Sequence record: PV340542
Direction: 5' to 3' (one strand)
From: Escherichia phage mEp506
Length of the DNA: 40,128 bases
Made by a program: the position numbers and the translations under genes. A model generated the notes under the pieces. It worked only from the letters and a program-made list of their open reading frames with translations, was not told where the DNA came from and searched no databases. Shown here one piece after another: positions 8,971 to 9,798 of this stretch (within the stretch, counting starts at the first letter, position 1; each line of letters begins with the position of its first letter).

Positions 8971-9798
8971 ATGGGGTATGTCTCTATACACCGCCAGTTT
9001 ATGGAGAGCAGGCTCTATAAGGACTCTCAGGCAGTACATCTTTGGCTTCACTTAATCCTCAAGGCTAATCACGAATCTACTGTCGTCAATACGGATATCG
9101 GTCCGATAACTGTTGATCGCGGTCAGATGATAACTGGACGCCCGTCGCTGGTCAGAGAAACATTCATCCCCGACAACAAAGTTCGGAGCTTATTACGGAC
9201 TTTTGAGTCGAAAGGTATGCTTAATATTTGCTCGATGGGGAAGAAATTTAGCCTGTTTACAATCGTTAAATATGACGATTTTCAGGCAAAAAATTGTCCA
9301 ACGGTTGTCCAACGGTTGTCCAACGCAAACACCAGTAATGGCGCGGCTCTCAGCGGAGATTGTCCAACGGTTGTCCAACGGTTGTCCATAAACAATAATA
9401 TAAATAATATCTCTAATACTGACGTATTAGAGAGTGCCACAGCAGACAAAAAGTCTGACAAGAAAAAACCTTCCGTTAGCTGTCAGGATGTTGTCGATGC
9501 TTACCACGAAATCCTTCCTGAAGCGCCAAAAATCCGCGCACTGAATGACAAGCGTAAAAACCAGATCCGAACGTTCTGGCGCAAAGCCGGAGTGATAACC
9601 CGCCAGCTTGACGGGCATGGGTTCACGATGCAGGACTGGAGAAATTATTTGAGCTACGTTGGCGAAAATTGCCGATGGATGTTCGAAGAGCGCCCAAACC
9701 ATCAACGCGGAACCGTCTGGCACAAAAAGGGATTTGATTTCCTGCTTAACGATAATACCTACCTGAAAGTTCGTGAGGGTGAACACGATGACCGATAA
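8971..9798 (+). CDS. replication initiator (lambda O / P22 gene 18-like) containing the origin iterons
   Basis: ORF 8908..9798; preferred start MGYV at 8971 with AGGAGG RBS. Iterons and an AT-rich stretch lie inside the gene as in lambda O; a DnaB-like helicase follows. Confidence 0.75.
   Translation: MGYVSIHRQFMESRLYKDSQAVHLWLHLILKANHESTVVNTDIGPITVDRGQMITGRPSLVRETFIPDNKVRSLLRTFESKGMLNICSMGKKFSLFTIVKYDDFQAKNCPTVVQRLSNANTSNGAALSGDCPTVVQRLSINNNINNISNTDVLESATADKKSDKKKPSVSCQDVVDAYHEILPEAPKIRALNDKRKNQIRTFWRKAGVITRQLDGHGFTMQDWRNYLSYVGENCRWMFEERPNHQRGTVWHKKGFDFLLNDNTYLKVREGEHDDR
9294..9425. repeat. ori: origin of replication: two sets of three ttgtccaacgg iterons followed by an AT-rich region
   Basis: Direct repeats ttgtccaacggttgtccaacggttgtccaacg (9294-9326) and again at 9360-9390, then aaacaataatataaataatatctctaatact. 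Confidence 0.75.

Follow-up and report, generated by a model that had tools for sequence, protein, structure and literature searches.

A probable theta-replication origin of the HK022/Sf6/phage L type within the initiator gene of Escherichia phage mEp506

In a stretch of 40,128 nucleotides (nt) from Escherichia phage mEp506 (sequence record PV340542; the whole stretch is referred to here as the window), a segment made up of short tandem repeats (iterons), an AT-rich tract, and a palindrome lies inside the initiator gene (plus strand, 8908-9798; 296 amino acids). This segment is very probably the theta-replication origin of the HK022/Sf6/phage L-type lambdoid module, placed in the part of the gene that codes for the linker between the two domains of the initiator. 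The window belongs to an HK022/mEp234-like lambdoid phage, and in related phages the gene is called O, gene 18, or gene 43. An earlier note, made from the letters of the window alone, had proposed a replication origin at this place, and the proposal agrees with the origin annotated in phage Sf6 (99.3% identity), with a publication on phage L (PMC8022706), and with the comparative tests described below. As the element has already been annotated in GenBank for Sf6, with equivalents in HK620 and VT2-Sakai, and published for phage L, it is a known and ordinary one. The module is common among lambdoid phages (Sf6, L, HK75, and mEp234), and the allele found in the window is present in 145 of 5426 complete E. 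coli genomes.

The repeats form two blocks on the plus strand, each consisting of three head-to-tail units of 11 base pairs (bp). Block 1 (9294-9326), which is part of the Sf6 origin feature, reads TTGTCCAACGG, TTGTCCAACGG, TTGTCCAACGC; block 2 (9360-9392) reads TTGTCCAACGG, TTGTCCAACGG, TTGTCCAtaaa, with the third unit truncated where the block enters the AT-rich tract. Four units are thus exact, the third unit of block 1 has a single mismatch, and the third unit of block 2 keeps only the first seven bases. The earlier note had described three perfect 11-bp repeats, twice; there are two triplets of 11-bp units, but the repeats are not all perfect. Its coordinates were correct (block 1 from 9294, block 2 to 9392), and the gap that it gave as about 33 bp measures exactly 33 bp (9327-9359). 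This spacer is equal to three units of 11 bp, is comparatively rich in G+C (42% A+T), and keeps the blocks in register: the start-to-start distances of the iterons are 11, 11, 44, 11, and 11 bp, so that all six units share a register of 11 bp and the blocks recur every 66 bp. A repeat finder had been suggested as a check, and Tandem Repeats Finder reports both arrays with a period of 11, 100% matches, and scores of 64 and 58. The 8-bp core of the unit, TGTCCAAC, has five exact copies in the window, all of them within 9295-9379, compared with 1.22 expected over both strands of the whole window, and no copy was found in the window outside the iterons. The sequence TGTGGAAC is an altered version designed for this core. 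The sequence AAACACCAG, with which the spacer starts, was considered as a degenerate fourth unit but rejected, its CCA being one base off the 11-bp register and its CC positions (9332, 9333) variable among close alleles. On the minus strand, each triplet (9293-9322 and 9359-9388) has a weak sigma-70-like promoter score (TGGACA, 18 nt, GACAAT; 9 of 12 matches), which is probably a by-product of the repeat sequence.

The repeats are followed by the AT-rich stretch that the earlier note had also seen, a tract of 21 bp (9389-9409) with 95% A+T compared with 54% for the gene, and this tract is the putative DNA unwinding element. The GC content drops to 0.225 over the 40 nt from 9380 to 9419. Next to the tract is a perfect palindrome, TCTCTAATAC-tgac-GTATTAGAGA (9410-9433), with 10-bp arms and a 4-nt loop; it was absent from the earlier note and extends beyond the end coordinate given there (9425). 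All of these elements are translated, with the repeats lying inside the open reading frame 8908-9798 as the note had stated: the iterons encode amino acids 129-162, and the repeats, tract, and palindrome together encode amino acids 129-176. Matches to the DnaA box (TTWTNCACA with at most one mismatch) number 67 in the window, one of them in the origin (9383-9391, minus strand), while 68 are expected, so the count provides no evidence for DnaA sites. A search of Rfam over 7900-10000 at E ≤ 1 returned only a chance-level match.

The closest known counterpart is that of Sf6. The whole initiator gene is 99.3% identical in DNA to Sf6 gene 43 and to its equivalents in HK106, mEp234, and IME10, and the rep_origin feature of the Sf6 record (AF547987, 28385-28480) maps exactly to 9293-9388 of the window, a near-identical segment at the same place in the gene. 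The note in that record calls the origin “putative” and likens the repeats to the lambda origin. Sf6 has two single-base differences from the window, both at positions linking the units, and otherwise does not differ substantially. In gene 18 of Salmonella phage L, 11-bp repeats of TGTCCAACGGA have been named the likely origin (Zaworski et al. 2021, PMC8022706), and the genetics cited there indicate that the whole replication region, rather than single genes, is exchangeable between P22 and L. Six imprecise 11-bp repeats of the phage L kind are found in the initiator gene of the window (9294-9392), where they are written here in the register TTGTCCAACGG. A full-text search of the literature for exactly TTGTCCAACGG had no result, since the repeat appears in the other register in the phage L paper. 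Neither the Sf6 nor the phage L description mentions the palindrome, the homology of the initiator to G38P of phage SPP1, or the co-variation of the repeats with the N-terminal domain, all of which are discussed below. Two equivalent blocks of 30 bp are annotated as rep_origin in HK620 (AF335538) and as “ori iteron 1/2” in VT2-Sakai (AP000422). Together with HK022, these phages have the same gene family and the same layout as the window (3+3 units of 11 bp, 66-bp period); however, they represent an allele of this origin type with another specificity, with the core TTACCAGC in place of TGTCCAAC.

Because the segment lies within a coding sequence, its repeats could be nothing more than a duplicated peptide-coding segment (CPTVVQRLS, encoded twice) in a flexible linker, with no role of the DNA in cis. 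Both 33-bp blocks share one reading frame, so that the same run of 9-11 residues occurs twice in the protein, and linkers often tolerate duplications. The repetition within a block, however, cannot be a peptide repeat: a unit length of 11 bp is not divisible by three, which puts the units of each block into three different reading frames. Homologues also retain the 11-bp periodicity while the encoded peptide differs, and the core sequence tracks the class of the N-terminal domain. Further evidence against a coding duplication comes from variation among close alleles. A scan of viral contigs with the family alignment returned only alleles that were 98-100% identical, which were of no use for assessing diversity but were reused for a polymorphism footprint of 66 distinct near-identical alleles. 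Among these, 84 of the 891 positions of the gene are variable. The cores (unit positions 2-9), the AT-rich tract, and the palindrome have no variable position in 91, compared with 65 of 751 in the rest of the gene (Fisher p 6.5e-4), while unit positions 10, 11, and 1 together with the 33-bp spacer are hypervariable (19 of 49 positions, p 5e-8). The cores are thus invariant at all codon positions, while the unit linkers and the spacer vary at second and third positions far above the rest of the gene. No part of the gene is more polymorphic among these near-identical alleles than the spacer (9327-9359), second codon positions included; the length of the spacer is fixed across homologues and its sequence is not. 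The constraint on it appears to be one of spacing and not of sequence. The frames of the units, the periodicity kept by homologues, and the pattern of variation indicate that selection in the origin segment acts on the DNA and not on the peptide, and a mere coding duplication is effectively excluded.

The layout of the repeats is conserved in more distant relatives. In each of ten homologous initiator genes, the corresponding site holds a pair of triplets of 11-bp units that recur with a 66-bp period, but the genes have at least five different cores. The core TGTCCAAC is shared by the window, Sf6, ST160, and ENT47670; TTACCAGC is found in HK022, HK620, and VT2-Sakai; TTACCAAC in Pantoea phage PA-1; (A/G)TGCCAAC in Klebsiella phage phi13.1; and TGTCCAGCC in CobraSix and Chronis. 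An eleventh and more distant homologue, from Pseudomonas phage Orimi01 (23% identical), has 11-bp repeats of AACCAGCAGTG without a clear 66-bp period. Natural domain swaps among these genes show which part of the protein the core follows. ENT47670 has the same core as the window, with 77% identity in the N-terminal domain and 53% in the C-terminal domain, while HK022, HK620, and VT2-Sakai have the different core TTACCAGC, with 43% identity in the N-terminal domain and 98-100% in the C-terminal domain. For the helicase, the product of the next gene, HK620 and VT2-Sakai show 99-100% identity to the window, and its pattern of identity tracks the C-terminal domain of the initiator. The mosaic junction with the HK022-type alleles lies at 9407/9408, inside the AT-rich tract, with the palindrome beginning two bases further on. 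Rightward of 9408, the DNA is 98.7-99.5% identical to HK022, VT2-Sakai, and HK620, whereas the DNA coding for the N-terminal domain is 57.8% identical to that of HK022. Judged from these natural sequences, the iteron core tracks the N-terminal domain and not the C-terminal domain or the helicase. The earlier note had predicted from an iteron sequence different from that of lambda that the initiator would have a distinct specificity, and this is supported because the core changes with the N-terminal domain across the natural swaps, with cores that are invariant in the 66 alleles.

Three observations on related phages concern the same joints. In ST160 (L002 1431-1500, compared with window 8908-8975 and with L004), the first 22 or so residues of the initiator are HK022-like, while the rest of the N-terminal domain and the iterons resemble those of the window. 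A second mosaic joint within the N-terminal coding region is thus suggested, and the first 20 or so residues would lie outside the specificity determinant. The initiator of Pectobacterium phage ZF40 (L094 412-1182) has the same C-terminal domain and a DnaB-like helicase downstream, but its N-terminal domain is different (Pfam HTH_36, E 2e-11), giving this helicase-side module a third kind of DNA-binding head. The ZF40 repeats are also different, being dyad-symmetric (CTGTGCC..GCACAG), yet they are duplicated at a 66-bp period. In the lambda RefSeq record (L003 858-867; record 39157-39166), two misc_recomb features are placed, without explanation, where the AT-rich region meets the palindrome, a site that corresponds to the mosaic joint of the window at 9407/9408.

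The initiator itself was called O-like in the earlier note, which is right as to the position and role of the gene but not as to its homology. The Pfam family Phage_rep_O (PF04492) gave no match in the initiator even at E ≤ 10, although it matches lambda O (5.7e-36) and P22 gp18 (6.9e-38). Comparison with lambda O gave BLASTP E values of 4.4 or more and an hhalign probability of 0.1%, no Pfam family scored above threshold, a search of NCBIfam with the initiator returned no match, and a search of PDB sequences with the initiator profile gave nothing below E 0.16. In contrast, amino acids 20-130 align with residues 2-115 of SPP1 G38P with an hhalign probability of 98% (E 1.4e-13), and tblastn with the initiator recovers SPP1 gene 38 (E 4e-5) and, in agreement with the PHROG matches, replisome-organiser or DnaD-like loader genes of Gram-positive phages. 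By these comparisons, the initiator is not a homologue of lambda O, and its N-terminal domain is homologous to the origin-binding domain of G38P. The part coding for this domain (8965-9297, plus strand; about amino acids 20-130), the presumed reader of the iterons, matches PHROG 2514 (E 2e-23), while the whole protein matches PHROG 345, “replication initiation O-like” (E 5.5e-85). The part coding for the C-terminal domain (9434-9798, plus strand), which presumably recruits the helicase, corresponds to PHROG 24933 and to the C-terminal part of PHROG 345, and the domain is weakly similar to the C-terminus of P22 gp18 (E 2e-4). In every annotated record listed, the gene that follows the C-terminal domain is annotated as a DnaB-like helicase or as protein P. 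In the window, this gene (9788-11224, plus strand) encodes a phage replicative helicase of the DnaB family (Pfam DnaB and DnaB_C; TIGR03600 phage_DnaB with 584 bits against a cutoff of 498.65). It overlaps the initiator gene by 11 nt, and its ATG at 9788 corresponds to the start of Sf6 gene 44. The names given to the initiator are less consistent: phage records use “replication protein O”, while RefSeq/PGAP has “hypothetical protein” in five of the five complete E. coli genome matches listed (for example, NZ_CP033096.1, 1407733-1408203). The family is routinely mislabelled and is without a proper curated model.

G38P is the experimentally studied origin-binding protein, or replisome organiser, of SPP1, and it has been reported to bind the direct repeats of oriL inside gene 38. 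These repeats adjoin an AT-rich unwinding element, and a 356-bp oriL fragment has been reported to support reconstituted theta replication. The linker-coding part of SPP1 gene 38 has a tandem array with a period of 11 (L008 1257-1307; about AGAAACGACAC, 4.6 copies), which is followed by three to four copies of a 9-bp AT-rich unit, AACAATGAT (L008 1257-1346 overall); these are presumably the published binding boxes, or “AB boxes”. SPP1 and the window therefore resemble each other in the N-terminal domain of a G38P-type organiser, in tandem repeats followed by an AT-rich element at the place in the gene of the initiator itself where the linker is encoded, in the 11-bp length of the unit, and in a DnaB-family helicase encoded downstream. 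There are also differences. SPP1 has a separate loader, G39P, between initiator and helicase, whereas no gene lies between the two overlapping genes of the window. The C-terminus of G38P is the Pfam domain Phg_2220_C (PF09524; 2e-20), for which the initiator of the window has no match. The SPP1 repeats form a single array and not 3+3, and a 10-bp palindrome was not found there.

The likeness to lambda is one of arrangement. The earlier note saw the same architecture as in the lambda origin, and this is so for the order of elements in the linker-coding part, midway through the initiator gene (iterons, then AT-rich tract, then a palindrome whose loop has 4 nt), but not for the iteron array. Lambda and P22 have four iterons, each about 19-20 bp long and internally dyad-symmetric, at spacings of 20, 24, and 23 bp, and inverted-repeat pairs occur in that region of both phages, while the window has six abutting, asymmetric 11-bp units in a 3+3 arrangement. 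Dyad symmetry of the unit (GTTG-TC-CAAC, a partial dyad in the window) was rejected as a general feature because the other core classes do not show it. Lambda O and P22 gp18 share the Phage_rep_O domain that the window initiator lacks. Lambda P captures the DnaB of the host, whereas the module of the window encodes its own DnaB-family helicase; P22 likewise pairs its initiator with a DnaB-type helicase. In lambda, it is the N-terminal half of the initiator that determines specificity, and hybrids are joined at the edge of the AT-rich region, as in the window.

A mechanism consistent with these comparisons can be proposed, in which binding of the initiator to the repeats, its stoichiometry, unwinding of the AT-rich tract, recruitment of the helicase, and the role of the palindrome are steps that we infer. 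Transcription from the early rightward promoter would supply the initiator, and its G38P-like N-terminal domain would bind the 8-bp core of each of the six head-to-tail units. With units spaced at 11 bp, about one helical turn, and the two triplets in phase, the bound proteins would sit roughly on one face of the helix and could form a bent or wrapped complex. This complex would destabilise the adjacent 21-bp AT-rich tract, and the neighbouring palindrome may be extruded as a hairpin or may itself be bound. The C-terminal domain would then bring in the phage's own DnaB-family helicase, the product of the next gene, without a loader gene of the lambda P or SPP1 G39P type, and the primase and polymerase of the host would take over last.

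Binding of an initiator is not the same as initiation, and it is conceivable that the repeats are initiator-binding sites with a regulatory function, such as autoregulation, a roadblock to transcription or to the replication fork, or control of copy number or incompatibility, while the true origin lies elsewhere. Lambda iterons carried on a plasmid can inhibit phage replication in trans, and the computed evidence does not separate binding from initiation. G38P of SPP1 binds two regions, and its binding at oriR is described (PMC3485210) as fork stalling and not as early initiation. As G38P also binds oriR, which is not an early origin, sites bound by an initiator need not be origins. This precedent weighs against an origin in the window, as do several other points. 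With 21 bp, the AT-rich tract is short next to that of lambda (about 38-40 bp). An AlphaFold2 model computed from the initiator sequence alone is unusable (mean pLDDT 36.8, pTM 0.21), and a winged-helix nature of the N-terminal domain and binding of one protein per unit are therefore only presumed. The designation of the phage L repeats as the likely origin was itself inferred, and a literature search for data on binding, unwinding, or autonomous replication with this allele found none. A purely regulatory function is nevertheless improbable. The repeats are directly followed by a tract of 95% A+T and then by a palindrome, which is also how the elements are ordered in the tested lambda origin, and the tested oriL of SPP1 also consists of direct repeats beside an AT-rich unwinding element. 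There is no second candidate site in the window, in which the core has no other copy, and the phage L genetics (PMC8022706) place the origin within the replication-gene region. A replication origin at the repeats is by far the more probable reading.

The palindrome requires separate consideration. As a single strand, its DNA is predicted to form a hairpin of -9.7 kcal/mol (z -4.35). All ten homologues form, at the equivalent position, a stem of nine or ten perfect pairs closed by a 4-nt loop, in five sequence versions, and the 30 nt upstream have 73-83% A+T. Of its ten pairs, seven have been altered on both sides and none on one side alone. Paired cells make up 98.6% of the homologue palindromes, compared with 30-51% when the partner columns are slid, and the substitutions also change the protein sequence. 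In lambda, the equivalent position to the right of the AT-rich region is occupied by a palindrome whose arms are 12 bp long and whose loop has 4 nt. In the natural swaps, the palindrome moves with the helicase-side module (C-terminal domain and DnaB-type helicase) and not with the iteron-side module. It is possible, although this is put forward only tentatively, that the palindrome is a separately selected, structure-forming third element of the origin, either as a hairpin or cruciform or as the site of a symmetric protein, that it marks the place of helicase loading, and that it is a general, uncharacterised component of phage origins embedded in initiator genes.

Covariation of this kind would fit an RNA stem equally well, and the palindrome alone might act at the RNA level, as a stem-loop in the initiator mRNA involved in processing or control of translation, or as an intrinsic terminator on the minus strand for leftward transcripts. 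A consensus scan finds 9433-9410 on the minus strand weakly terminator-like, with a 10-pair stem, a 4-nt loop, and the tail TATTATTTAT. However, the stem has only three G-C pairs and the tail is broken by A's. All 16 of the 16 changed cells are changed on both sides without G-U intermediates, as expected of a DNA palindrome or the site of a symmetric protein, and the lambda origin region has its equivalent palindrome at the same place. A function in RNA or in termination is therefore considered unlikely.

Upstream of the initiator gene, a repressor with an S24 peptidase domain is encoded on the minus strand at 7242-7946, followed by a 61-amino-acid open reading frame in the position of cro (8060-8245), for which there is no Pfam family match, and by CII (8431-8727). 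Between CII and the initiator is a 53-amino-acid open reading frame (8760-8921, plus strand) that overlaps the start of the initiator gene by 14 nt. It matches PHROG 1331 (unknown function, E 1.4e-37) and corresponds to orf48, hkaW, or Sf6 gene 42; its positional counterparts are named “tail protein” in the RefSeq records of P22 and PA-1, apparently by mistake. Inside the 3' end of CII, the minus strand has a strong terminator-like hairpin (8676-8703; 12 pairs followed by a run of T). This is the place of the oop terminator annotated in P22, where the oop promoter is just upstream of orf48, and the hairpin is probably part of the oop antisense RNA of this phage; no Rfam family matching it was found.

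As a discovery the origin carries little weight, but it is a useful worked example of replication specificity residing in the N-terminal domain together with the iterons, computed from natural swaps. The homology to G38P, which corrects the O-like label, the evidence on specificity from natural swaps, the footprint among alleles, and the compensatory changes in the palindrome are new here. The border between the AT-rich tract and the palindrome is the mosaic joint to the C-terminal domain and the helicase. VT2-Sakai has a sister allele, and the link to G38P, a system amenable to biochemistry, provides a better template for annotation of, and experiments on, the replication of Shiga-toxin phages.

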